Shown: one piece after another, positions 1,524 through 57,524 of the stretch
How positions within the stretch are numbered: position 1 is the stretch's first letter
Layout: every line of letters starts with the position of its first letter
From: Chitinophagales bacterium
Lineage (GTDB): Bacteria; Bacteroidota; Bacteroidia; Chitinophagales; LD1
Length of the DNA: 64,000 bases
Direction of reading: 5' to 3'
Assembly: GCA_046329495.1 (NCBI GenBank)
Contig: JAXLUO010000016.1
Span: 21,499 to 85,498 of the forward strand
Made by a program: the position numbers and the translations under genes
The notes under the pieces: model-generated
What the model was told of the DNA's origin: nothing
Databases searched by the model: none
What the model saw: only the letters and a program-made list of their open reading frames with translations

Positions 1524-2048
1524 ATGCTTATAAGTATTACAGGCACCGAATCAACAGGCAAAACTACCCTGGCAAACCAACTGGCCCAACATTATGGAGC
1601 CGGTTTAGTGCCCGATATATCCAGAATGGTAATGGAAAGAATAGGCAGTAACTATACCGCAGTTGACGTAGCGAATATTGCTGCAGAAATTATTGAACGC
1701 GAAGATGCACTGCTAAAGCAATCAAAAGAGGCAATTATCATAAGCGACAATTGCTTGTTTAATATACAAATATGGCTTGAATATTACCGATGGGAAACAC
1801 CGGAATGGCTGAAAGATGTTTTGGTGCAACGCAAAAGCGATTTGTATCTGCTTTGTGATATTGATCTTGACTGGGTGCCGGACGACCAAAGAAAGAATCC
1901 TCACGACCGGGAAACACTCTTGGTTAAGTTTATGGAAGAAATGTCTTCCAAAGGCGTTAATTATAAACTTATCAGCGGTAGCGGCCCGGATAGACTGAAG
2001 GCCGCCGTCCAACAAATAGATAATTTCATAAATTATCCGGAAAGTTGA
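1524..2048 (+). CDS. NadR-type ATP-binding protein (AAA_28; ribosylnicotinamide-kinase-like)
   Basis: 174 aa; Walker A GTESTGKT at the N-terminus and a YLLCDIDLDWVPDDQR motif typical of stand-alone NadR kinase domains. Confidence 0.8.
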   Translation: MLISITGTESTGKTTLANQLAQHYGAGLVPDISRMVMERIGSNYTAVDVANIAAEIIEREDALLKQSKEAIIISDNCLFNIQIWLEYYRWETPEWLKDVLVQRKSDLYLLCDIDLDWVPDDQRKNPHDRETLLVKFMEEMSSKGVNYKLISGSGPDRLKAAVQQIDNFINYPES

Positions 2049-2163
2049 TATTTTTAGATACATGACTGATCCGTTCATATGTTAATTATAAGCGGTGTAC
2101 ATCAGTGAGTTTCTGTTTATGAAACTTTTTAACTAACCACCCGTAAGGGTAAGCTGAAATTAA

Positions 2164-3966
2164 ATGGGCGGCCAAACAACATTACTGGAACGTTATGCCA
2201 ACCGGATTGAGGAACTTCTGATTGCTTTTGAGGAACACAAGAAAGCACGCAATAAGGAGTCTGCCCACCTGGGATTGGAAGCGTATGACCTTGCCAAGGA
2301 ATGCGGCGATGCACAGCTTATCATAAAAGCCGGCACTTCCTTATCCCATTTCTATACCGACATTACCAGCGAATTCCACAAGGCCATCAGGGTAATAACT
2401 GAGGTTATCGAACTGATCAACGAACAGGAACATAGATCCATTGTTTCGGAGTTTTACCGGCGCTTAGGATTAAACTATGATTATACCGGCGAACTGGTAA
2501 AATCAAAGGAGGCCTATGATAAATCTATTGTGCTGCTCGAAGACCGCACGGATCTTGATCAGGCTGCTATACTTACCCTGGCCCGCTCACTTTTTAATGT
2601 TTCTATTATCTACGGCAACCTGGGGTTAGAAAACCTGTCGGAAACTAACCTGAAAAAAGCCTATCAGCTTTTTCTGCAGGCCGACTATAAAGCAGGTATT
2701 TGCCGTTGCCTTATATCATTTGGTGTAGCGCTTTACGAAAAGCAGGGCGACACCACCGAAGTACTCAATTATTACCGTGAGGCTGCCAACATTGCCCGCG
2801 ATATCCATGATGATCCGCCGTTTTGTGTGGCCATGGGTAACATTGGCATTGTATCTGCCGAAAAGGGAGACTTTACCTCCGCCCTTGAAGCAGCCATGAA
2901 AGCGCTGGAAGTTGCGCAGCGCTCCGTTAATAAACACTTTCTTTTCAGCATCCACCGGCAATTAGCCCGCATTTATCAATTAAAGAAAGAATACGAAAAG
3001 GCCAATCAGTGGTATGAGGGTGGCGAACGGTTGTTTATAGAAATGGGCCGCACGCTCGATCAGTTCGAGTTCTACCGCTTTTGGGCTGAAACGCTGCACG
3101 CCATGGGCCGGCACGAAGAAGCCTATGGCAAGCTGTACAATTTTATCAGCAGCAAGGATGAGCTGCACAAAATAAATAAGGAAGCTGCGGTTACCGATGC
3201 CATGTTGCGCTTTCAGTTAGAAGAAGGACGTAAGGAACAGGAACTGCTGAAAAAGAAAAATGCCGAGATAGAAGAATACGCACGTAAGTTGGAGGCGTCG
3301 AACCACGAATTGAACCAGTTTGCGTACGTAGCCTCGCACGATATGAAAGAGCCCCTGCGTATGATCAGCAACTACTCGCAATTGCTGAATCGCTCGTTGG
3401 GCAACCATCTTTCTGATAAAGATGTGCAATACCTGCAGTTTATTAACGAAGGGGCCAAACGGATGATGAACATCATCAACAGCATCCTTCAGTTATCAAA
3501 AATAAATACCATATCACAACCCGGCCCTGTAAATCTGAATAAGGTATTGGAGGAGGTTAAGCAAGGTTTAAGTGTGCAGATAGTAGAGCGCGGCGCACGT
3601 ATACAGGCACCGGCTTTACCAACTGTAAACGTTGACCAATTACAAGTGCTTCAGTTAATGCAGAACTTGATTTCGAATGCCATGAAATACAACCGCAATG
3701 CGGAAGTAAGAGTGGAAATTGGTTACGAAGAAACAGAAACCTGCCACCAGCTAAGCATTGCCGATAATGGCATAGGCATTGCGCCGGATTACCGCGAAAA
3801 GGTTTTTATCATCTTCCAGCGCTTACATGGCCGCGAAGAGTTTGACGGTACAGGCATAGGCCTGGCTATCTGCAAAAAAATAGTCGACAATTTTAAGGGC
3901 AAAATCTGGATTGAAGACTCACCATTGGGAGGCACCAAATTCTGCTTTACCATCCCTAAGCAATAA
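2164..3966 (+). CDS. Soluble TPR-repeat sensor histidine kinase
   Basis: 600 aa; N-terminal ~340 aa of TPR-like helical repeats, H-box SHDMKEPLR, N-box NLISNAMKY, G boxes DNGIGI and GTGIGL; no transmembrane helix seen. Confidence 0.9.
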   Translation: MGGQTTLLERYANRIEELLIAFEEHKKARNKESAHLGLEAYDLAKECGDAQLIIKAGTSLSHFYTDITSEFHKAIRVITEVIELINEQEHRSIVSEFYRRLGLNYDYTGELVKSKEAYDKSIVLLEDRTDLDQAAILTLARSLFNVSIIYGNLGLENLSETNLKKAYQLFLQADYKAGICRCLISFGVALYEKQGDTTEVLNYYREAANIARDIHDDPPFCVAMGNIGIVSAEKGDFTSALEAAMKALEVAQRSVNKHFLFSIHRQLARIYQLKKEYEKANQWYEGGERLFIEMGRTLDQFEFYRFWAETLHAMGRHEEAYGKLYNFISSKDELHKINKEAAVTDAMLRFQLEEGRKEQELLKKKNAEIEEYARKLEASNHELNQFAYVASHDMKEPLRMISNYSQLLNRSLGNHLSDKDVQYLQFINEGAKRMMNIINSILQLSKINTISQPGPVNLNKVLEEVKQGLSVQIVERGARIQAPALPTVNVDQLQVLQLMQNLISNAMKYNRNAEVRVEIGYEETETCHQLSIADNGIGIAPDYREKVFIIFQRLHGREEFDGTGIGLAICKKIVDNFKGKIWIEDSPLGGTKFCFTIPKQ

Positions 3967-6590: not shown

Positions 6591-8207
6591 TTAATAATTC
6601 ATCTCTGTTACCTGCTTGTTCTTCGGATACTTAAGCGTGTAAGCAAAACGCAGTTTCTTGCTTTCATTCGGTGCCAACGTAAGCTTCCATTCCAGTTTTC
6701 CTATTTCAGAAGTATAAATAGCTCCACTGTTTTCACCCGGATCAACTTTTATATCTTCCTGTTTAGATACCGGCAATTGATCCAGCACTTCTATTTCTAT
6801 AGCTACCGGCTTCATATTTTTGAGCGCTATTTCGTATACATAGCTTTCAATCTTTGTATTCAGCACACACTTCTTGCTGCTCAGGTCGGTTATCTGGGTG
6901 CGCTTTACATTAATACGTTCATCACGCCCAAACGACAACAACAAGGTATCGCTGGTTATTGCAGGATTAATGTACGACTTGCCTACATAAGCCCCTTCCA
7001 GAAAAATACTGGCATTACCCGGCAACAGATTGTACTTGCTCCAGTCAGTAACCTTGGCTAACAAAAAGGCGGCAGCTTCCATCTTAGGGACCGTGTGGTA
7101 AACATAACTGGCCTGCAGTTCTTCTTTATCAAATACAATGGTGTGTGCTTTCCCATCGGCAGGCACATCCTGGCGCAGTGCAAGGTCGTAGCTTACATTC
7201 ACGGTATTATCGGTTTGCTCACTGGCTACAGTACCAGCCCACTCATATTTTCCGCTTTCATCGTCGCCCGATTTATCCTTGCGATCGTAGATAGCCATGT
7301 TCATAGCCGGTGCCGCAACAGTATTTACACTTTTATATACGCGGTACTCCACATAATTTACATACAGCGGATTTAAAATCGGGCGGCTGTTGTTCTGTCC
7401 GGGGTTTCCGGTGCAAATACTAAGTTTTACATTTTCCCAATCCATACCGGTGTTCTGATACACATTGGCTTTTTGTACCAGTGTTACCGGCGAGCCCGGT
7501 CCATCGCTGCGTAAATCATATTCCGCATTCCAACCTGAATTACCGGCCGAATAAGCACATTTAATAGAACCTTGTGTGGCCTGGTTAGCATGCAACATCA
7601 ACAACAACTGACCACGCGGCTGGTTGCGCTTTGCATTCACCTCGTTCAATTGTTGTTGCAGGTTGTTCTTTAGCTCATTGCCTTGTTTTACTTGTTTATC
7701 AATAGCTAAAACCTTTTGCTTTAATTCCAATTCCCTGCGGCGAAACATATTGGCAAGCAATTCTACATCGTTGGCTGTAAATGGCTGTTTCTCGTTCCCC
7801 AGCGATTGATTGCTTTTCAACAAAGCCTGCTCTTCTTCATACACGGTTTTCTCCGCTTTCCATTGGTCCAGTTTATCCTGTAATAATTCAAGGCTATCCT
7901 GCCAGCGTTTTATTTGCCCGTTCTCTTCGGTGCGGGCTAAAAAATCAGTTCCATAGGTAGCGCTTATTAATTCGGCCTTCCCCTTTAAAAACACTTGTAA
8001 ACTATTCGGGTCAATAGCGGTGCTTATATCCTGCACTATTAATTGCGTAGTGCCGGCAGCAATGCTAAAATCAGCTTCGTTTACCAATCGCGATTGCGTT
8101 CGGTAAACGGTTACTTCGGTAAGTTTTGAGTTTACGGGTACGGTATTATCCTTGGCAATGGCAGGCATTACAGCCGCCAACAGCAAGGCAAAAAATAACT
8201 TCTGCAT
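6591..8207 (-). CDS. DUF4139/DUF4140 (MuiA-like) secreted protein
   Basis: Start moved to MQKLFFALL (signal peptide). Motifs VTVY, coiled coil, WNAEYDLR, YQNTGMDWENVKL and C-terminal LEWKLTLAPNESKKLRFAY. Confidence 0.85.
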   Translation of the reverse strand: MQKLFFALLLAAVMPAIAKDNTVPVNSKLTEVTVYRTQSRLVNEADFSIAAGTTQLIVQDISTAIDPNSLQVFLKGKAELISATYGTDFLARTEENGQIKRWQDSLELLQDKLDQWKAEKTVYEEEQALLKSNQSLGNEKQPFTANDVELLANMFRRRELELKQKVLAIDKQVKQGNELKNNLQQQLNEVNAKRNQPRGQLLLMLHANQATQGSIKCAYSAGNSGWNAEYDLRSDGPGSPVTLVQKANVYQNTGMDWENVKLSICTGNPGQNNSRPILNPLYVNYVEYRVYKSVNTVAAPAMNMAIYDRKDKSGDDESGKYEWAGTVASEQTDNTVNVSYDLALRQDVPADGKAHTIVFDKEELQASYVYHTVPKMEAAAFLLAKVTDWSKYNLLPGNASIFLEGAYVGKSYINPAITSDTLLLSFGRDERINVKRTQITDLSSKKCVLNTKIESYVYEIALKNMKPVAIEIEVLDQLPVSKQEDIKVDPGENSGAIYTSEIGKLEWKLTLAPNESKKLRFAYTLKYPKNKQVTEMNY

Positions 8208-8366
8208 ACGGTTTGGTTTGGTGATTACTAAAAACGCCTCTGGCAAAGGCAAAAGCGTGATGCGCCAAAACACAGCATTCCATAAACAACTACTTGTAAA
8301 AAGCTGTTAAGCAATTATTTCCATTTCATTCACCTTGTTCGCGGCACATTACTATGCTTAAAATCA

Positions 8367-8398
8367 TTGCCTGTGGCACCCCCTAAAAGTTATATTTG
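8367..8398 (+). promoter_or_regulatory. Sigma70-type promoter for the OmpA-family gene
   Basis: TTG at 8367-8369 and TATATTTG at 8391-8398, 17 nt upstream of the ATG. Confidence 0.65.
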
Positions 8399-8415
8399 AG
8401 CGTCAATTCATACAT

Positions 8416-10815
8416 ATGAAGAAACTTCTACCCTTGCTGCTTGCGCTGTTGCTAACCCAACTGGCCCATGCACAGTATTTTAAAGGCCTGGAGGCCAGCC
8501 CATACGGTGGTGTTACCACGGTGGGCTATAACCCGGCCATTGCCGATAACCGCTTTATTGCCGATATTAATCTGATAGGCGCCGGCTTTAATCTCAGTAA
8601 CAATTATGTAGGTGTAAGCCGCGATGTGGTATTACATCCTAAATCGGTGGATTGGGATAATTTTCAGGATGAATACTTGAAAGAACGCTTAAACGGTAAG
8701 GATAAATACCTGTACACCGCCACTCAAATTCAGGGGCCTTTGTCCTTTATGTTTAGCTGGGGCAAAAAGAAGAACAACAATGCGCTGGCCTTTACCTATA
8801 ACTTTAACAGCGTAACCAACGTTGATAACATCGACCAAACCTTTACCCGTATTGCTTACTACGGTGTAGGTTATAAAGCCGATTCGTTACTGGGTTTCCG
8901 CGGTGCTAATCTTACCGACGAGAACATGTCCATCAAAACCAATACCTGGATAGATTACGGTATCACCTACTCGCGTGTAGTATGGGAAACCGATAAGCAC
9001 ATGATAAAGGTAGGTGGAACTTTAAAATTCATTCAGGGAATTTCCGGTGGCTACGCCTTTGTAAAAGACCTGAAATACCGCTGGGAAGATTACGACACCC
9101 TCTCCATCTTTAAAACACAAGCCGATTATAAATACTCCAAAGGCTTTCTTACTTCGGATGGCTATGCGCCCGGCGACCTGAACAACTTCTATAACAACCT
9201 CATTTCTTTTAAATACGCAACACCTTCGGCTGCAGTTGATTTGGGCATGGTATATGAATGGCGTCCTAACAAGGAGAAATACAAATACCAAATGGATTGT
9301 GAAGACCGCTGGCGTTTCGATAAAAACCGCTACACTTTAGCAGCCGGTTTTTCATTAATCGACTTTGGTGCTATTAACTATAAGAAAGGCGAATATAGCG
9401 GCAACTTCGAAGCCGATATTACCAATTGGGATGTAAAAGGTGCCAAATTCCCTGATGGTGTGAAAAGTTTGGACGATACCATTCGCTCGCGTTTTGTGGT
9501 TACACCCGATCAGTCCACCACCTTCCGTATGTGGCTGCCTACCCGTTTCAATTTCTTTGTTGATTATAACATTGCCTATGGCTTTGGTATTAACGCCAAC
9601 GCCACATTAGCGGTTGATATGAGCAAGCAGCACACCATGCCGCACCATGTTTCATCGTTTACCATCACCCCTAAATTCGACCATAGCTGGTTTGGCTTAT
9701 ACCTGCCTGTTACCTACGATGTAATGGGTAACTTTAGCTGGGGTGCTACCATGCGCTTAGGACCACTAATTGTGGGCGGTGGCGATGTATTGGGTATGCT
9801 GATAAAGAAACATTCATTCGGCACCAACATTCACGTAGGCCTCAAAATCCCTATTCCTTATCATAAAGTGCGCGATCATGATAAGGACGGCGTATCGAAC
9901 CGTAAGGACCTTTGCAAAAAAGAACAAGGCACCTGCGTAACCCACGGATGTCCTGACAAGGACGGCGATGGCGTAAAAGATTCAGAAGATAAGTGCCCTG
10001 AAATTCCGGGTCCGGTTGAATTGGGTGGTTGCCCTGATACCGATAAGGACGGCATTATTGATATCGAAGATAGCTGCGTTTACGATGCGGGTCTGGCTGA
10101 ATTCCACGGCTGCCCTGACCGTGACAGCGACCGCATTATTGATAAACTGGACGAGTGCCCTGATGCACCGGGCGTATTAGCCTTTAACGGTTGCCCGGAT
10201 ACAGATAATGATAGCGTGCCCGATAAGCGTGACCGTTGTCCTGAAGTGCCCGGCGATATCAACCACTTTGGTTGCCCCGATACTGATGGCGACGGCTTGT
10301 ACGATTACGAAGACAAGTGTATACAGGTAAAAGGCCCGAAAGAAAACAACGGTTGCCCTTGGCCTGATACGGATGGCGATGGTGTTTATGATAAAGATGA
10401 CCAATGCCCTAAGATCTTTGGTGTGGCTGAAAACCATGGTTGTCCTCAACTGGAGAAGAAGGAAATTGAAACCGTGAAATACGCGTTCGAGAACCTGGAA
10501 TTTGAAACCGGTAAGGACATTATCCGCAAATCTTCTTATGCCAGTTTAAATGCCCTGGCCGATCTGTTAGTGAAGAAAGCAGGTTACGGTTTACGCATCG
10601 AAGGCCACACCGATAATGTGGGCAGCGACGAAAACAACCTGATCCTTTCCAACAAACGTGCTGTTGCTGTGAAAAACTACCTGAACAAAAAAGGTGTTGA
10701 CATCAATAAGCTGGAAGCTTACGGTTACGGCGAAAGCCGCCCAATTGCTACCAACGATACACCGGAAGGCCGTCAGAAAAACCGCCGTGTAGAAATGACC
10801 ATCACTTTCCGCTAA
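8416..10815 (+). CDS. DUF5723-type outer-membrane barrel + thrombospondin type-3 repeats + OmpA_C domain
   Basis: 799 aa; signal peptide, ~480-aa beta-rich region, seven DxDxDGxxDxxDxC repeats, OmpA motifs IEGHTD and NRRVE. Confidence 0.85.
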   Translation: MKKLLPLLLALLLTQLAHAQYFKGLEASPYGGVTTVGYNPAIADNRFIADINLIGAGFNLSNNYVGVSRDVVLHPKSVDWDNFQDEYLKERLNGKDKYLYTATQIQGPLSFMFSWGKKKNNNALAFTYNFNSVTNVDNIDQTFTRIAYYGVGYKADSLLGFRGANLTDENMSIKTNTWIDYGITYSRVVWETDKHMIKVGGTLKFIQGISGGYAFVKDLKYRWEDYDTLSIFKTQADYKYSKGFLTSDGYAPGDLNNFYNNLISFKYATPSAAVDLGMVYEWRPNKEKYKYQMDCEDRWRFDKNRYTLAAGFSLIDFGAINYKKGEYSGNFEADITNWDVKGAKFPDGVKSLDDTIRSRFVVTPDQSTTFRMWLPTRFNFFVDYNIAYGFGINANATLAVDMSKQHTMPHHVSSFTITPKFDHSWFGLYLPVTYDVMGNFSWGATMRLGPLIVGGGDVLGMLIKKHSFGTNIHVGLKIPIPYHKVRDHDKDGVSNRKDLCKKEQGTCVTHGCPDKDGDGVKDSEDKCPEIPGPVELGGCPDTDKDGIIDIEDSCVYDAGLAEFHGCPDRDSDRIIDKLDECPDAPGVLAFNGCPDTDNDSVPDKRDRCPEVPGDINHFGCPDTDGDGLYDYEDKCIQVKGPKENNGCPWPDTDGDGVYDKDDQCPKIFGVAENHGCPQLEKKEIETVKYAFENLEFETGKDIIRKSSYASLNALADLLVKKAGYGLRIEGHTDNVGSDENNLILSNKRAVAVKNYLNKKGVDINKLEAYGYGESRPIATNDTPEGRQKNRRVEMTITFR

Positions 10816-51484: not shown

Positions 51485-52540
51485 TTAGAACATAGCAGGG
51501 CAATGGCCCGGATGTGGTTTTTTACGGAAACTACCCTGATACAGAATTGCTACCTCAGGAGCCCCCACGGTTTTTGAAGCCGGCATCAATTTCGAAATGT
51601 TCATATCATAAGCTAAACCTACGCTCAAGCCCTTATAATCTATACGCGTATTGAAGATAACTGCATCAAACAAACCCCGGTACTGCATTCCAAAGTGAAC
51701 TGCTGTTTTGCTTAAGGTTGGATTGCCTACAATTGTTTTAAAATTGCAGCCTACATTAAATTCATAGGCCGGGCCCTGTACCAACACTAAAAAATTGGGC
51801 ATAATAGACAGGCGTTTGCCAACTGGAATTGCAGCACCGCCATGCATGCTTATTTTCATATACATCCGCTCGCGGCCGGCTACATTGCCTTCAAGGCCAT
51901 TCGGATAAAAAGAGACTTTGGGCTGATTAACATGGTTTAAAGCAACACCGAAATACAGATTGGTTTCTTTTTTGGTTATGCCACTAATCAAAATACCGGC
52001 ACCTGCATCGCCATACACAACCTTGTTGCGGCCAAAATATTCCCCATTACGAGTTAAATCAGCCTGCCCGGTATTAAAATCATACTGCTCATCAAAGGTG
52101 GCACGCGAAGGATCAAAGCTCTTATAATTAAACGAACCTTGCAGACCGGCTGATAACTGCAGGGTTCCTTTTCGATTCAACATAAAATGATAGGCAAATG
52201 AAAGATCTACATGGTTAGTGTTCAAACGGACAGCACCGGCTTGATCGGCAAAAAATGAGATACCGAAACCCGCAAAACTATTATGCTTGGTAATTTTGCC
52301 AACAGCCATATCAGCTCCACCCGCAAAGGTACGATAGGTATTCCCTTGCGAAACCGTCATCCACTGCGTACGGAAATTGGCATAAACGCGGTAATCGCCT
52401 GCATTCATACCAGCCAGCGCCGGAGACAATAATAGCGGAGACGAATTGTACTGCGAGAAGTGAATGTCCTGCGCAGTTAAGTTATTCTTAGCAACAGACA
52501 TTATCAGCAACATCAACAAAAGGCGTAAAAACTTTTTCAT
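51485..52540 (-). CDS. PorP/SprF family T9SS outer-membrane protein (second paralog)
   Basis: QDIHFSQY..SPLLLSPALAG, FRTQW, AYD.N.SKL, G.PEVAI. Confidence 0.9.
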   Translation of the reverse strand: MKKFLRLLLMLLIMSVAKNNLTAQDIHFSQYNSSPLLLSPALAGMNAGDYRVYANFRTQWMTVSQGNTYRTFAGGADMAVGKITKHNSFAGFGISFFADQAGAVRLNTNHVDLSFAYHFMLNRKGTLQLSAGLQGSFNYKSFDPSRATFDEQYDFNTGQADLTRNGEYFGRNKVVYGDAGAGILISGITKKETNLYFGVALNHVNQPKVSFYPNGLEGNVAGRERMYMKISMHGGAAIPVGKRLSIMPNFLVLVQGPAYEFNVGCNFKTIVGNPTLSKTAVHFGMQYRGLFDAVIFNTRIDYKGLSVGLAYDMNISKLMPASKTVGAPEVAILYQGSFRKKPHPGHCPAMF

Positions 52541-52680
52541 GGCATAAATTATATGCTTGTTGAAACGGGCTATGCCATCCCTGAGATGCCATTTTAACTA
52601 AGTGAAAAACAACATTTAGCTTGTGAGTTACGCTATAACCTTATTGCCTTAAAAGACGTAGTTAAACCTGCACCAACCGC

Positions 52681-52723
52681 AAAAGCAAAAACCCGGCTAA
52701 TTACTTAGCCGGGTCTTGCTTTT
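52681..52723. terminator. Intrinsic terminator hairpin
   Basis: AAAAGCAA-AA-ACCCGGCTAA-TTAC-TTAGCCGGGT-C-TTGCTTTT. Confidence 0.75.
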
Positions 52724-52969
52724 AAATCCCTATAAAAATTTTTAAGCGGTATAGTAACGCTGTAAAATGCTTAATTTAGTATCATATGGTACCAAATCAT
52801 CTATTTTAGTCAATTGTCTATCAATGTTACTTTGTTAAAAAACCAACATATACGGACGTCAAAAACAATTGATTGGTAATGCTGCTCAGCATTACTTCTA
52901 ATTTTGCGCAACTAATGGCCTTAGTTTCTGCCGCAAAACTCTATCGCTTTATAGCTAACTAACCGGTTA

Positions 52970-53188
52970 TTAATTGCTCATTAAGTCGTCCTTATCAATA
53001 ATAATTATAGCTCCCTTGTCAGTAATGGTTCCGTAGGTAGAAAGCTGCTTTAATTGGTCATCGCTCAGAGTGCGAAGTTGATCGTTGCTTATTGTTATCT
53101 CGCTACCGGCATACTTCTTAAGATCAATCGTGTTTTCGCGCGAAGAGAAAAAGCCTAAAGTGATTAGTAATGAAATTAATAGTTCCAT
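52970..53188 (-). CDS. Small putatively exported peptide (72 aa)
   Basis: ATG preceded by an A-rich Bacteroidota-type leader (CACAAAAAATTAAAAAC); hydrophobic N-terminus; C-terminus GAIIIIDKDDLMSN. Confidence 0.7.
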   Translation of the reverse strand: MELLISLLITLGFFSSRENTIDLKKYAGSEITISNDQLRTLSDDQLKQLSTYGTITDKGAIIIIDKDDLMSN

Positions 53189-53438
53189 GTTTTTAATTTT
53201 TTGTGGGTTTACGAATAGTGCAAACGTCCTGTTATATTTTCAAGGTTTGTTTATAACAAAGCACAACTTGGTAACGACAAAAAACCACATTATCGCATGG
53301 CAATCAATAAGTTAGAGCCCGACGCATGCAGATCTATTTTAGATTTTGCAATATTAGTAACGGGCACTTTTTACTGAAATCGAAAGGGTTATACTTTTAG
53401 CAAAATAGTATATTCGCAGTGTACAATTACCGGGTAAC

Positions 53439-54953
53439 ATGTTTGAACTTCGAGAAATTGCCAAATTAGTAACACAACACCGTCGAAAATTTAGAGGCAG
53501 CCTCCAACAGAAACAACAGGAACGTTCAAACGAACACATGTTGCGCATGTTCAGAGGGCTGGTAAAAGATGAATTCAGTACGGACGAACAGGCAGCGAAA
53601 ACCCTCTATGGTATAGATAAGCCCGACAAGCGATTCAGAATGTTAAAGGGTCGGCTCATTCGGCGGATGATGGATGATCTCTATTTCTTCGATCAAAGCC
53701 AACGGAACTTATCGCCTTACCTGAAAGCAAACTTTCGATGTGCTAAAAACTTTTTTGGTGCCCGGATATTGCTCTTGTATGGCGCCCGTACTGCTGCAAC
53801 TAAGATGTTTAAAACCGTAGCAGCCGATGCTGAAAAGTTTCGATTATATGACATGGTGATGCTTAGCTGCCTGCACTTACGCTCCAACTATAGCTTTGCT
53901 TCCGACCCGCTGCGGTTTAACTACTACAACAAAAAATTTCATGAAGCTCTGAAAGAATTCAGCGCAGAAAGTTATTCTCACGAGTGCGTTGAAACCATAT
54001 ATGCTGCTATGGGAAAAACTTCGGCCCGGAAAACCGACATTGCCGAAAGGTCGGAAAAATACATAGCCGAACTGGAGAAGATGGCTGAACGGCTCCACTC
54101 TTATCACTTACATTTCAATCTATTCAGGTTAAAAATTATCGCGCAGCAACAACGGGGCCGTTATATGAAGGCCATGAATGAATGCGACCTTGCTATGGCC
54201 TATTTGTATAGCAATCGCCCGTTTATGCAGCGCGTACGGTTAGCGGAATTAGCCCTCATTAAAATGGAATGCTGCTTGCTGCTGCGTAACCACGAATTGG
54301 CTGAAGAAAATGAAGTTATTTGCCAAAAATATTTTCCCGCCGGACACTTTAACTGGATGATTTTTCAGGAAATATACCTGTTAACCTGTTTGCACACGGC
54401 CCACTATGAGAAGGCTTACGCTATTTACCAGGCAGTTACTGCCCAACCCAACTTTTCAAAATTAGGAGAGGCTCGGGTGGAAAAATGGAAAATATTTCAT
54501 GCTTACATGCATATCCTGAAAAACAGCGGGCATTTACAGGGTATGAAAAGCGAAGACCGATTCAATCTACCCAGATTTATGAATGAGTTACCCATTTTTT
54601 CGCGCGATAAATTAGGACTCAACCTAAGCATTCTAATCGTCCAATTTAGCTACTTACTACAAAAGGGAGATTTTGAGAAAGTAGCTGAAAAGATGGAAAT
54701 GTTACAATCCTACAGAAGCCGGTATTTGGCTAAAAATAAGGTGCATTTCAGAAGCAATATCTTCCTTAAGATGCTGTTCTTTTATGCCAAATACTACAAC
54801 GACCGTAAAAAGCTAATCTGGCGAACGGATAAATTGCGTCAGGAACTCAAGTTGCACCGCGAATCAGCCTATCTAACTATCGAAACTCACGAAGTTATAC
54901 CCTACGAGGTGCTCTGGGACCTGCTTACTAAACCCTCCAAACAACCCAAATAA
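53439..54953 (+). CDS. Uncharacterised 504-aa alpha-helical protein (putative HTH + TPR-like regulator)
   Basis: Basic N-terminal ~85 aa (TDEQAAKTLYG...RFRMLKGRL) followed by helical repeats; no signal peptide or TM helix; TATATTCG promoter box at 53409-53416. Function is inference. Confidence 0.8.
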   Translation: MFELREIAKLVTQHRRKFRGSLQQKQQERSNEHMLRMFRGLVKDEFSTDEQAAKTLYGIDKPDKRFRMLKGRLIRRMMDDLYFFDQSQRNLSPYLKANFRCAKNFFGARILLLYGARTAATKMFKTVAADAEKFRLYDMVMLSCLHLRSNYSFASDPLRFNYYNKKFHEALKEFSAESYSHECVETIYAAMGKTSARKTDIAERSEKYIAELEKMAERLHSYHLHFNLFRLKIIAQQQRGRYMKAMNECDLAMAYLYSNRPFMQRVRLAELALIKMECCLLLRNHELAEENEVICQKYFPAGHFNWMIFQEIYLLTCLHTAHYEKAYAIYQAVTAQPNFSKLGEARVEKWKIFHAYMHILKNSGHLQGMKSEDRFNLPRFMNELPIFSRDKLGLNLSILIVQFSYLLQKGDFEKVAEKMEMLQSYRSRYLAKNKVHFRSNIFLKMLFFYAKYYNDRKKLIWRTDKLRQELKLHRESAYLTIETHEVIPYEVLWDLLTKPSKQPK

Positions 54954-55107
54954 ACAATCGGCTTAAGTTAACATGTTCTCTTTTTTGATTTTTAACCGCA
55001 ACAAAAATGAACTATAAACTTGATTTTTAAATATTTACAGATTGAAAATTATTTAATAAATGGACTACTTCACCGTTACCCAAATACCCCGATAAACTAT
55101 TTTTTGG

Positions 55108-55437
55108 GTGCTACAACCTGTAATCTTGATTAGTATTTTAATTAAGAGAGTACAACGTAGCATGATGCTTTTGTATGAGACCCTGATAGGTATGGAAGAT
55201 GAAATTGAGAAGGCACCCGAAGCAAACAATCAGGGTAACTTAACCTCGTCGTTTAACGATGCAACCGGTAATTCGGTTTCAAAAAATTTCGCATTCCACC
55301 ATATGTGGCAAAAAGTGTTTAATAAGCTTTCTGTATTCAGCGATAACGAATATCTCAACAATAACAAAACCAATCGTTTTCTTAAAAATGAAATAAAAAT
55401 TAATCCTAATTGGCCTTTGCGCGATGGGGATTTATAG
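55108..55437 (+). CDS. Possible small hypothetical protein
   Basis: 109-aa open frame in AT-rich intergenic DNA; start uncertain (55162 or 55192); no motif recognised. Confidence 0.25.
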   Translation: MLQPVILISILIKRVQRSMMLLYETLIGMEDEIEKAPEANNQGNLTSSFNDATGNSVSKNFAFHHMWQKVFNKLSVFSDNEYLNNNKTNRFLKNEIKINPNWPLRDGDL

Positions 55438-55439
55438 GG

Positions 55440-55634
55440 ACACTGCATTTATGCGCCATAGCAGCTGGGTAGAGCTGGCTATGGCGCTGATGCGGTAATC
55501 CGCCCTTTATATTCAAACGGTAGTATCCCAAGCCCGTCTTAAAGTTCCTCGAGTGCTACCGCTTTCTGTAGATTGAAGTAATTGTTCTCATTCGGGGCTG
55601 AAGGCTAAAGAAGGCGTAAAAATTTCGTGACGGT
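55440..55634 (-). ncRNA. 6S RNA-like (ssrS-like) non-coding RNA
   Basis: Minus strand: CAGCCCCG closing stem, unpaired bubble, GCGGUAG..CUCGAG-GAACUUUAAGAC-..CUUGGG..CUACCGU hairpin, UUGAAUAUAAAGGGCG. Resembles the 6S CCCCUGAG / CGAGAAGCCUUAAAAC / UUGAACCAAGGG motifs. TAGCTTTG promoter box at 55647-55640. Confidence 0.6.
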
Positions 55635-55665
55635 TACAACAAAGCTATTTATGAATTTATTTTCC

Positions 55666-55673
55666 TAAATTTG
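55666..55673 (+). promoter_or_regulatory. -7 promoter box for the two-component cluster
   Basis: TAAATTTG about 100 nt upstream of the first kinase, back-to-back with the 6S-like promoter. Confidence 0.5.
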
Positions 55674-55772
55674 AAGGTGACGGCAGGGCAACCTGACGTA
55701 ACTACGCAGGCATTAACCCACTATTACTTCCCCTTTAATAGCAAATGCTGGCAGTAGCAGTACTTTCCTAAC

Positions 55773-57524
55773 ATGGCGATTAAACATTTTAACACTATGC
55801 GGAACAGCACTTTTAATTCTATCATCATAGTCGGGGGATTGCTAACGCTAATTACTGCTTCCGGTTCAACACTTTATTACCACTATGCTTTGCTGCCCGA
55901 AAGCAGTAAAACTACACCAGCAATAACGCTCCTCGCTGTATTGCTGGGGCTTACATTTACCCTATTTATAGCATTCATAATCTATCACACCAAAGCGCTG
56001 GCTACTTCTTTGGCAAATGAACGCCACCAACGGTATATCCTCAATTCAATCATTGATAATGCCTCTGCAGGTATTTATGTAAAAAACACTGCTGGCAAGT
56101 ATATATTGGTTAATAAGCAGATTGCGGACAACCTTGGCTTAAGCCAGGAATCAATGATGGGTAAAACTTTATTTGATGTGGTACCTATTAACAACGCAAC
56201 AAGAATACAGCTTCATGATGAAGAAATACTAAGGACAGGTACAACGCTGCAAACTGAAGAACACCTTACCATTCATAACCAGTCGCGAACCTTCATTTCA
56301 ACCAAGTTTCCTGTCAAAGATCAATTAGGCAATATAATAGGAGTAGGAGGTATTGATACAGACATCACCGCTCGCAAAGAAGATGAGCAAAAACTGGAGG
56401 AAGCTTTTAACCGCATAAACGACCTTTACAATAATGCCCCCTGTGGTTATTATTCGCTAAATGCCGAAGGAACGTTTATCGAAATTAACGATACGCTTTT
56501 GCATTGGATTGGCTTCTCCCGAAGTCAGTTAGTGGGCAAAAAAAGTTTTATAGACTTTTTAACGGCAGAAAGTAAAAAATTGTTTCTCGAAAACTTTTCG
56601 GCCTTCCTCTCAACTCCGGGAATAATACGTCAGGAATATGAAATGCTGCGAGCAGATGGCTCAGTACTTTGGGTTGAAGTTTCTTCAACAGCAGAATGTG
56701 ATAACCATGGACGGTTTATGTATAGCCGTTCCAACCTGCACGATATTACGGCTTACAAAAAAGCAGAAAAACAAATCCAACAACTTAATAAGCAACTTAC
56801 TTTAAAAATACAATCATTGGAGGAAACCAATAACGAGCTTACAACGTTCACGCACTCGGTTTCACACGATTTACGTGCCCCGCTGCGCGCTATTCATAGT
56901 TTTATAAGCTTAATCGATCAGGAATATAAAGCAGAACTAACTGGCGAATGTCTCACCATGTTTTTAAACGTTCAAAAAAATGCAGATCGCATGTCGAACC
57001 TTATTGACGATCTGCTGGCTTATTCCCGTGTTGGTCGGTCAGGAATAAAACCTGCTGAAATGGATATGGGTGACCATGCGCGGGTAATTATGAATGAATT
57101 ATTAACTACCGGCGTTAAAAACAATATCATCTTCGAGTGTCATAGCACCGGAAAAATAATTTGCGATAAAACTCTAATGCGCCAGGTATTGGTCAATCTG
57201 CTTTCCAACGCTGTTAAGTACAGTTCGCGCAATCCCAGTCCCAAAATAATTTTTGGCAAAAAGGAAACGGATGGTCAGGTTATTTTTTTCGTAAAAGATA
57301 ATGGGGCAGGGTTTGATATGCGCTATGCGGGTAAATTATTCCAAATGTTCCAAAGATTGCACACCTCCCGCGAATTCGATGGTACAGGGGTGGGTCTGGC
57401 AATTGTACAGCGCATAGTTCAAAAACACGGAGGCAAGGTGTGGGCCGAAGGGAAAGTGGATGATGGTGCTACGTTTTATTTTTCTCTACCAGCAAAAACA
57501 GAGGAGCAACATGAACTCAATTGA
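55773..57524 (+). CDS. Membrane-anchored PAS-PAS histidine kinase
   Basis: Two N-terminal TM helices, two PAS/PAC domains, SHDLRAPLR, NLLSNAVKY, DNGAGF, GTGVGL. Alternative start at 55797. Confidence 0.92.
   Translation: MAIKHFNTMRNSTFNSIIIVGGLLTLITASGSTLYYHYALLPESSKTTPAITLLAVLLGLTFTLFIAFIIYHTKALATSLANERHQRYILNSIIDNASAGIYVKNTAGKYILVNKQIADNLGLSQESMMGKTLFDVVPINNATRIQLHDEEILRTGTTLQTEEHLTIHNQSRTFISTKFPVKDQLGNIIGVGGIDTDITARKEDEQKLEEAFNRINDLYNNAPCGYYSLNAEGTFIEINDTLLHWIGFSRSQLVGKKSFIDFLTAESKKLFLENFSAFLSTPGIIRQEYEMLRADGSVLWVEVSSTAECDNHGRFMYSRSNLHDITAYKKAEKQIQQLNKQLTLKIQSLEETNNELTTFTHSVSHDLRAPLRAIHSFISLIDQEYKAELTGECLTMFLNVQKNADRMSNLIDDLLAYSRVGRSGIKPAEMDMGDHARVIMNELLTTGVKNNIIFECHSTGKIICDKTLMRQVLVNLLSNAVKYSSRNPSPKIIFGKKETDGQVIFFVKDNGAGFDMRYAGKLFQMFQRLHTSREFDGTGVGLAIVQRIVQKHGGKVWAEGKVDDGATFYFSLPAKTEEQHELN

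Follow-up and report, generated by a model that had tools for sequence, protein, structure and literature searches.

A micro-protein gene and a TPR-like gene lie head-to-head

The window analysed here is a stretch of 64,000 nucleotides from a Chitinophagales bacterium (assembly GCA_046329495.1, contig JAXLUO010000016.1, positions 21,499 to 85,498 of the forward strand), and it contains a small and a large open reading frame (ORF) that are transcribed away from each other. The small ORF encodes a micro-protein of 72 aa, which begins MELLISLLITLGFFSS and ends DKGAIIIIDKDDLMSN, and the large ORF encodes a protein of 504 aa with tetratricopeptide repeat (TPR)-like helices, referred to below as the TPR protein or, after its putative role, the receptor. 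An earlier note on this DNA had described this arrangement, including the hydrophobic N-terminus and the C-terminal end of the 72-aa product and the 250 bp between the two genes, and each of these features was found where the note had placed it. Judged by comparison of sequences, the pair is a previously undescribed two-gene module, laid out like peptide/receptor pairs known only from Gram-positive bacteria; its binding, export and output are putative. By the same comparison it spans several lineages of uncultured Chitinophagales, and its carriers are all uncultured metagenome-assembled genomes (MAGs), obtained from activated-sludge and bioreactor communities. The pair has the following features.

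52970-53188, minus strand: small ORF (72 aa), with the N-block MELLISLLITLGFF and the C-terminal end GAIIIIDKDDLMSN
52982-53008, minus strand: nonapeptide core IIIIDKDDL, followed by MSN before the stop codon; family consensus I-[VI]-I-[IV]-D-x-D-E-L
53147-53188, minus strand: hydrophobic N-block MELLISLLITLGFF, lineage-restricted and missing from most orthologs
53189-53438: spacer of exactly 250 bp between the two start codons of the head-to-head genes
53439-54953, plus strand: large ORF (504 aa), a cytoplasmic all-helical TPR-like protein of a large unnamed family
53439-53708, plus strand: basic N-terminal helical domain, residues 1-90, with the pattern DExAAxxLY...YxxLKxxLKxRL
54132-54485, plus strand: TPR repeats, about residues 232-349, located by profile search
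54600-54917, plus strand: C-terminal third with nearly invariant residues (SRDKLGLN, Y425, R428, R438, EVIPYEVLW)

The C-terminal nonapeptide is the constant part of the micro-protein

Thirty distinct versions of the micro-protein, 20-72 aa in length, share the core I-[VI]-I-[IV]-D-x-D-E-L (a full example is MKKRLHSKIPVEVIVIIDNDEL). Across these 30 peptides, Ile occupies the first position in 27 and the third in 28, Asp the fifth in 28 and the seventh in 26, Glu the eighth in 24 and Leu the ninth in 26, with Val or Ile at the second position and Ile or Val at the fourth. The residue at x is M, N, K, P, L, S, T, D or F, and Val often occupies position -7. The stop codon directly follows DEL in 22 of the 30, three residues separate core and stop in the peptides of the window's own genus, and the core has a charge of -2 to -4. 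In the window's own genome, the DNA pattern of the core is matched at G000:C8:74481-74506. The entropy of the core at codon positions 1, 2 and 3 was 0.31, 0.00 and 1.34 bits over 29 distinct DNA versions, a pattern that indicates constraint on the protein and not on a DNA or RNA element. Between the window and locus L015, the C-terminal block differs by nine synonymous codon changes and by no non-synonymous change. These codon comparisons demonstrate that the small ORF is a real coding gene under protein-level selection, and that the C-terminal nonapeptide is the selected part of its product.

Orthologs of the small ORF were found in the same divergent position in at least six lineages. Two close relatives of the window have divergent peptides of 70 aa (...NGIIIIDKDDLMSN) and 64 aa (...KGIIIIDKDELLSN). 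A 42-aa peptide, MEIVIAVLINLG...NIIVDDNVVV, adjoins a receptor only 31% identical to that of the window; a Kapaibacterium peptide of 69 aa ends ...NILIIDFETEY, and a peptide of 44 aa from a Saprospiraceae MAG ends ...NIIIEDHPNF. The minimal form, in another clade, has 24-25 aa (MERMLYSLLFALGFRNIVIIDMDEL). The middle of the window's peptide is thus dispensable, since relatives have shorter peptides, down to 24-25 aa.

The N-terminal half of the peptide has two forms. The first is a hydrophobic block of 12-14 residues with Met-Glu at its start and no basic n-region; it is present in the window's own genus, in g26 of f21 (a GTDB-coded family of 28 genomes), and in L055, L041, L062 and G131. The second is a short basic or hydrophilic stretch, found in most of f21, where the peptides have 20-22 aa. 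Altogether, 18 of the 30 peptides have a hydrophilic or basic N-half of 7-13 residues and no hydrophobic segment (MKMITKTPVSIIVIIDPDEL and MKRELPTKFPVGAIVIIDNDEL are examples), and neither form resembles a Sec signal in the 30 peptides. The hydrophobic block was considered as a defining feature and export signal of the family and was rejected: a two-block hidden Markov model gave 10 carriers, and a search with the core only gave peptides most of which have no such block. The hydrophobic, exported N-terminus proposed in the earlier note is therefore not a property of the family, as it is absent from most orthologs, which have 20-22 aa and a basic or hydrophilic N-half. The absence of a signal-like segment from most versions favours a putative intracellular or leaderless route for the peptide.

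A word-indexed search with the 72-aa protein returned three database entries only, all from the window's clade, and these three matches were not used to assess distribution. The micro-protein is well supported, yet in its 20-25-aa form it has been missed by gene callers almost everywhere.

The two genes are inherited together

A reciprocal search was performed with the DNA pattern of the core, I-[IV]-I-I-D-x-D-[DE]-L, over 401 genomes of the order. The pattern gave 16 matches in 15 genomes, compared to one match for the reversed control. Fourteen of the 16 are small ORFs that lie divergently beside a member of the TPR protein family (E 1e-70 to 1e-129), and the remaining two are evident chance matches. 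In f21, the receptor ortholog is single-copy in 26 of the 28 genomes, and a divergent micro-ORF was present in all 24 genomes that have a full-length receptor gene and assembled upstream DNA. Ten of these 24 were found by the strict pattern and 14 by reading the upstream DNA of the other full-length genes, each of which has a micro-ORF of 21-22 aa that ends IV[IV][IV]D-x-DEL-stop. Measured upstream from the receptor gene, the f21 micro-ORF starts at a distance of 335-409 bp, and in 13 of the 14 loci read by hand this distance is 385-409 bp. Linkage of a micro-ORF to the receptor gene was also found in L055, L041, L062 and G131.

Within the window's genus, the receptor is encoded in 4 of 40 genomes and the peptide in 3 of these 4; the contig of the fourth ends at the start of the gene, so that the pair is complete in 3 of 3 evaluable genomes. 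The other 36 genomes have neither gene, and this both-or-neither pattern indicates that the pair was gained and lost as a unit. As read from these genomes, the two genes share one history of inheritance, gain and loss.

The core profile was also run against 28,087 stop-to-stop segments from about 80 loci. Ten carriers scored at least 13.5 bits and all other segments 8.6 bits or less, a separation which indicates that most family members have no such peptide within 4 kb. A quick version of the receptor tree places 10 of 11 carriers in a single clade of 31 rows, and none of 500 label shuffles was as clustered. Manual and profile scans detected no diverged peptide in a 19-member Saprospiraceae sister subclade, and none beside paralog P0006. 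It had been suggested that homologs of the TPR protein would sit beside ORFs of <100 aa with an Ile-rich, acidic end; this holds strongly for the window's branch but not for most of the wider family.

Peptide-less members of the Saprospiraceae clade have another small gene nearby, encoding a Cys-rich protein of ~113-123 aa (MEVVFGTPSQNCIGSGVCMVM...) ~1 kb downstream on the same strand (L013 4117-4488; L023 6568-6912; L027 4733-5104; L030 6452-6823; also L025, L028, L031-L033, L036 and L064). This protein may be a different partner for the Saprospiraceae branch.

The distribution of the pair also bears on whether it might be of the toxin/antidote or bacteriocin/immunity kind, with a harmful peptide that is neutralised or escorted by the TPR protein. 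Such a function would suit a two-gene unit of one small and one large gene that is accessory in the window's genus (4/40 genomes), and the hydrophobic N-block of some versions. We nevertheless consider it very unlikely: the block is absent from most versions, the f21 pair is single-copy, nearly universal and core-gene-like, and no mobile-element context was found at the carrier loci. The PADLOC defence models matched neither the large protein, the small protein nor the downstream 109-aa ORF.

The large protein is a TPR solenoid from a very large family

AlphaFold2, run with a 12-sequence alignment, modelled the 504-aa protein as all-helical, with 24 helices (pLDDT 81.8, pTM 0.72). The protein has no hydrophobic N-terminal segment, and no signal or transmembrane segment was found in its sequence. 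Residues 1-90 carry a net charge of +8, with 21 K/R vs 13 D/E by direct count. These results agree with the earlier description of a soluble, all-helical protein with a basic N-terminal domain. The TPR-like repeats of that description were recovered as well. A 118-sequence profile searched against the PDB matched the TPRs of kinesin light chain at positions 235-349 (E = 5.2e-5), and PDB profile searches with the large protein returned kinesin light chain, designed TPRs and SMYD2 only. Foldseek returned generic TPR solenoids alone (LGN, SNAPs, Ctr9, MalT domain III; best E 7e-3). A Pfam scan of 89 family members found TPR_2 in 11 and TPR_MalT in 3 (best E 2.6e-6), and no recurring domain apart from these scattered matches. 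The TPR assignment holds on the strength of the kinesin light-chain profile match, the Pfam TPR matches and the Foldseek solenoids. The window's protein itself is matched by no Pfam, NCBIfam or PADLOC model.

In the C-terminal third, the motif SRDKLGLN contains D390, K391, G393 and N395, and EVIPYEVLW corresponds to E485-W493. The nearly invariant residues of this region are kept alike in members with and without the peptide.

An exhaustive profile search gave a family of 3,591 clusters at 50% identity, 1,924 of them at E <= 1e-30 and nearly all full-length, at about 500 aa; a word-indexed search with the large protein gave 12 relatives. The earlier note had described proteins of ~500 aa of this kind as common, unannotated paralogs. 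They are indeed common, and no Pfam or NCBIfam model covers them, but paralogs are not found in the window's own genome, in which the gene is single-copy. The loci that were fetched are almost all from Chitinophagales sensu lato (Saprospiraceae, Lewinellaceae, Haliscomenobacteraceae and unclassified MAGs), and one is from a Kapaibacterium MAG.

Some further observations were made on individual branches of the family. Residues 1-25 of the f21 receptors, MKNLIEISK[IV]VTKKR[IV]SKIEIFDK, are almost invariant, though the receptors are otherwise 63-70% identical; this N-terminus is common to the peptide-less Saprospiraceae sister clade, and residues 16-29, which include part of it, were modelled by AlphaFold2 with low confidence. 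In L004, a second TPR paralog, judged by its N-terminal sequence, lies in tandem directly downstream of the first (6784-7590, plus strand). In L041, two ORFs of 506 and 503 aa without a Pfam match flank the carrier gene (2004-3524, plus strand, and 7876-9387, minus strand) and may be paralogs. Family member P0004, which is 35% identical, lies on a short contig (L014 1-6710) with a relaxase, a DNA methyltransferase, an AlwI-type restriction enzyme and an RNase T-like gene, a gene set which suggests that one branch of the family may be associated with mobile elements.

The earlier note had also assigned a helix-turn-helix (HTH) to the large protein, and this assignment was not supported. An HTH in the N-terminal domain had been suspected from the likeness of DExAAxxLY...LKxRLKxRL to region 4 of sigma-70 or to LuxR, and it was rejected when four methods proved negative. 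Pfam identified no recurrent HTH in the window protein and 89 members, and a PDB profile search with the N-terminal domain found nothing. The isolated domain, modelled from 54 sequences (pLDDT 70), had no Foldseek neighbour (best E 4.7). In an hhalign comparison with region 4 of eight extracytoplasmic function sigma factors from the same genome, the suspected stretch aligned with a probability of 1.9%. As the model of the N-terminal domain has only moderate confidence (pLDDT 70), a novel DNA-binding fold there is conceivable. Receptor homology to Rap, Rgg, NprR, PlcR, PrgX or AimR, members of the RRNPP group of peptide receptors, was not detected by Pfam, NCBIfam, Foldseek or PDB profile; the top 50 Foldseek PDB hits contained no RRNPP chain, and none of the hits reached E <= 1e-3.

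The micro-ORF is its own transcription unit beside a conserved control region

Three non-coding elements were identified at the locus.

52688-52717, minus strand: hairpin like an intrinsic terminator, with a 13-bp stem and a T-run, between the small ORF and porP
53200-53226, no strand assigned: conserved non-coding block TTTGTGGGTTTACGAATAGTGCAAACG, 12-38 nt upstream of the small-ORF start
53395-53416, plus strand: conserved block TTTTAGCAAAATAGTATATTCG upstream of the large gene, containing TATATTCG, which is like the -7 element TAnnTTTG

The gene porP lies ~430 bp from the small ORF, with the terminator in between. In f21, the gene after the micro-ORF is almost always convergent, and in L017 both genes that flank the isolated micro-ORF are on the plus strand. 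The terminator before porP, the convergent neighbour in f21 and the isolation of the ORF in L017 together indicate that the micro-ORF is monocistronic and is no leader for genes of the type IX secretion system (T9SS). As far as gene order can establish it, the micro-ORF is its own transcription unit. The hairpin at 52688-52717 is strong and reads as a terminator on both strands.

Gene order likewise contradicts the possibility that the small ORF is a cis-acting leader peptide, that is, an Ile/Val-rich attenuator or translational sensor for an operon such as porP and the adhesin gene. The run of Ile/Val codons in the core is like that of ilv-type leaders, and porP is downstream on the same strand in the window. 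However, a strong terminator and ~430 bp precede porP, the next gene is convergent in f21 and the ORF is alone in L017. In addition, the acidic D-x-D-E-L tail is conserved as strongly as the Ile/Val run, and the linkage is to the divergent gene and to no downstream gene. A role as leader peptide is extremely improbable.

The neighbours of the pair in the window are PorP (E = 4e-36), an XRE regulator and a large PKD-rich protein, and these are neighbours in the window's genus only. ClpX, response regulators and others are found beside the pair in other clades. The connection to T9SS PorP and adhesin genes that had been drawn for this locus is incidental, given the terminator before porP and the different neighbours in other clades. 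Response_reg is the top flanking family, yet it accounts for 8 of 149 proteins in a Pfam tally of 49 non-redundant loci; single-domain response-regulator genes lie near several carriers (the window, L002-L005 and L017). Conserved operon partners and a two-component link were considered and were rejected as too weak, with 8 of 149 proteins being Response_reg and the rest diverse. No transporter or protease gene was linked to the pair among the flanking proteins.

Two further genes are found downstream of the TPR gene. In the window, an ORF of ~89 aa that ends ...NPNWPLRDGDL lies directly downstream (55165-55434, plus strand); it is 51% identical to ORFs in the same position in L002 and L003 and has no family match. 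A gene of 212-245 aa is next in L015, L016, L002 and L003 and is missing from the window.

Family members typically have 300-900 bp of upstream DNA, and 30 of 47 loci have a divergent gene on that side. Just upstream of the small ORF, GTGGGTTTACGAAT is invariant in four loci whose large proteins are 68% identical, and the block at 53200-53226 probably serves the small gene as promoter, 5' leader or operator. Upstream of the large gene, TTTTAnCAAAATnGTATATTCG is conserved in the window's own genus, and f21 has a perfect TAnnTTTG box (TATATTTGTGAC and similar) ~90 nt upstream. TAnnTTTG is the known -7 promoter consensus of Bacteroidota. In f21, an imperfect palindrome, TTWCA-N14-GTGAC, is located 50-90 nt upstream of the micro-ORF; by its information content, about 13 matches to it would occur by chance in each genome. 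These spacer blocks are candidate promoters or operators, with the promoter reading resting on the Bacteroidota consensus. An Rfam scan of 52500-55900 on both strands (E <= 1) found no family at its threshold and gave no match to 6S RNA. The conserved promoter-proximal elements of the spacer suggest that the pair may be co-regulated or feedback-regulated.

The control region is also where the case rests for the TPR protein as a local regulator of which the micro-ORF is merely the divergent target, an effector and not a ligand. The conserved spacer motifs adjoin the micro-ORF promoter, and the long upstream regions (300-900 bp) and the divergent upstream neighbour in 30 of 47 family loci would be in keeping with such a role. 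A DNA-binding domain is undetectable, however, it is hard to see what a 20-aa product with an invariant acidic tail would do by itself, and strict co-inheritance with one receptor lineage fits a ligand too. We regard this explanation as unlikely. It is compatible with the data and with the ligand reading, as the peptide of a feedback loop is both target and ligand.

The micro-protein is proposed as a ligand of the TPR protein

We propose that the pair is a dedicated regulatory module, consisting of a micro-protein and its cognate cytoplasmic TPR protein, in which the TPR array would bind the acidic C-terminal tail and occupancy would switch activity. This proposal has, in our judgement, about an even chance of being correct. 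The micro-protein, of 20-72 aa, has one constant part, the tail I-V-I-I-D-x-D-E-L-COOH, and the gene for the ~500-aa TPR protein is divergent from it across a control region of 250-410 bp that both genes share. Short peptides in extended form are the usual ligands of TPR domains, and several of these domains recognise acidic C-termini, for example the EEVD tails of Hsp70 and Hsp90. By analogy, the TPR array may bind the hydrophobic-then-acidic tail of the micro-protein, and occupancy by the tail would then switch the activity of the receptor. The output may be protein-protein regulation of the Rap kind, at least as likely as direct control of transcription; a Rap-like output is favoured because no DNA-binding domain is detectable.

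Several points weigh against this proposal. An output domain was not identified in the receptor, an HTH being undetectable by four methods, and response regulators are only weakly enriched near the family (8/149 neighbours). The most conserved residues of the receptor are also present in many peptide-less members, so that the fold may have a primary ligand other than the peptide. Equally, the TPR protein may control production of the micro-protein, which would then be no ligand of it. Finally, no receptor column tracks Pro, Met or Asn at position x in f21, and no convincing co-variation was found.

Co-variation of receptor and peptide, which the earlier note had put forward as a check, was looked for on a 24-taxon tree of f21 receptors. 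Position x changes at least seven times on this tree, among them three separate gains of Leu and two of Pro, and one receptor column, in a hypervariable loop, weakly tracks Leu at x. As convincing matching receptor changes are absent, x looks weakly constrained, is not a specificity determinant and gives no pherotype signal. The core is almost invariant and is not split into pherotypes.

These results bear directly on extracellular peptide signalling of the RRNPP type, whether quorum sensing or autocrine, in which the micro-protein would be released, maybe trimmed to IVIIDxDEL, re-imported and sensed by the TPR receptor. We consider this improbable; release would be leaderless or would use the hydrophobic N-block where present. 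The layout and the sizes match Rgg/SHP and PrgX/PrgQ, the conserved part lies at the C-terminal end of a peptide with a variable N-part, and the imperfect palindrome near the peptide promoter is expected of a feedback loop. Leaderless communication peptides act as signals in Firmicutes (PMC10518010). On the other hand, most versions have neither a signal peptide nor a hydrophobic segment, transporter and protease genes are not linked to the pair, the receptor has no detectable HTH, pherotype-like co-variation is missing, two membranes would have to be crossed in each direction, and RRNPP systems are described for Bacillota only (PMC10075063). It is doubtful that the pair is the first case in Bacteroidota of signalling between cells by a genetically encoded peptide, with components that have no relation to RRNPP proteins and with a leaderless 20-25-aa micro-protein or its IVIIDxDEL tail being released, re-entering cells and being read by the TPR receptor. 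If this were true, other branches of the receptor family, which has thousands of members, would sense other, unrecognised ligands.

The dedicated module proposed above offers a sharply defined and easily synthesised candidate ligand, the nonapeptide or the 20-25-aa micro-protein, with a single cognate receptor gene. The pair combines strict co-inheritance in >27 genomes with a conserved control region, and with it one can test directly in vitro, without cultivation of the host, whether peptides encoded in the genome serve Bacteroidota as regulators or signals. It also opens a first way into the function of a very large family that has no name (3,591 clusters at 50% identity).

Comparison with known systems

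The best specific bacterial match to the TPR protein is domain III of MalT (TPR_MalT), which was found in 3 of 89 members (best E 2.6e-6) and among the Foldseek hits. Unlike MalT, the family has no NTPase and no LuxR-type HTH domain, and the matches are weak and cover part of the solenoid only.

The micro-protein tail is like the ligands of TPR carboxylate clamps, by which Hop, CHIP and PP5 bind the EEVD-COOH of Hsp70/Hsp90: a hydrophobic-then-acidic motif lies at the extreme C-terminus (DEL-stop in 22 of the 30), and the proposed binder is a TPR protein. The clamps differ in that they belong to eukaryotic co-chaperones and not to dedicated gene pairs, and three residues follow the core in the window's genus. 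This likeness is an analogy from general knowledge; the candidate clamp residues K391, N395, R428 and R438 are nearly invariant, also in peptide-less members.

Gene pairs of a peptide and a TPR receptor are central to regulation in Bacillota and in their phages and plasmids. To our knowledge, no such gene pair has been described in Bacteroidota. In the RRNPP/RRNPPA systems (Rgg/SHP, PrgX/PrgQ, PlcR/PapR, NprR/NprX, AimR/AimP), as here, a cytoplasmic TPR-type receptor adjoins a small ORF whose conserved, presumably active part comprises <10 residues at the C-terminal end, and rgg/shp and prgX/prgQ share the divergent layout. SHP is a short precursor with an Ile-rich core beside an acidic residue, for example DIIIIVGG, and in this it is like the core described here. 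All RRNPP members except Rap have an N-terminal HTH. In the pair, there is no sequence or fold match and no detectable HTH, and most peptides have no export signal. The RRNPP receptors have 280-450 aa vs ~500 aa here, and the core of the present family is conserved, without pherotypes or co-variation, in a diderm phylum. Descriptions of RRNPP systems are confined to Bacillota (PMC10075063), and a large RRNPP screen covered Firmicutes genomes only (PMC10075063; PMC9765709).

In the leaderless SIP/RopB class (PMC10518010), a very short ORF without a secretion leader likewise lies beside a cytoplasmic receptor. RopB is a Rgg-type HTH-TPR regulator of Firmicutes, whereas the receptor here is unrelated and release of the peptide is putative.

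The earlier likening of the pair to RRNPP and Rgg/SHP systems thus stands for the layout, the conserved C-terminal core and the cytoplasmic TPR protein, and falls for receptor homology. We conclude that the pair is not a member of RRNPP, because receptor homology, an HTH, a secretion signal and co-diversification all fail. The Rap/Phr systems of Bacillus differ as well, in that phr lies downstream of rap in the same orientation and its product is a pro-peptide exported by Sec, and no homology to them was detected. They resemble the pair in having a TPR array with a small N-terminal helical domain and no HTH, in the protein-protein output supposed here, and in the response-regulator genes near several carriers, an enrichment that is weak (8/149). 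By analogy with these systems, the pair may still work like an RRNPP system or its Rap/Phr branch.

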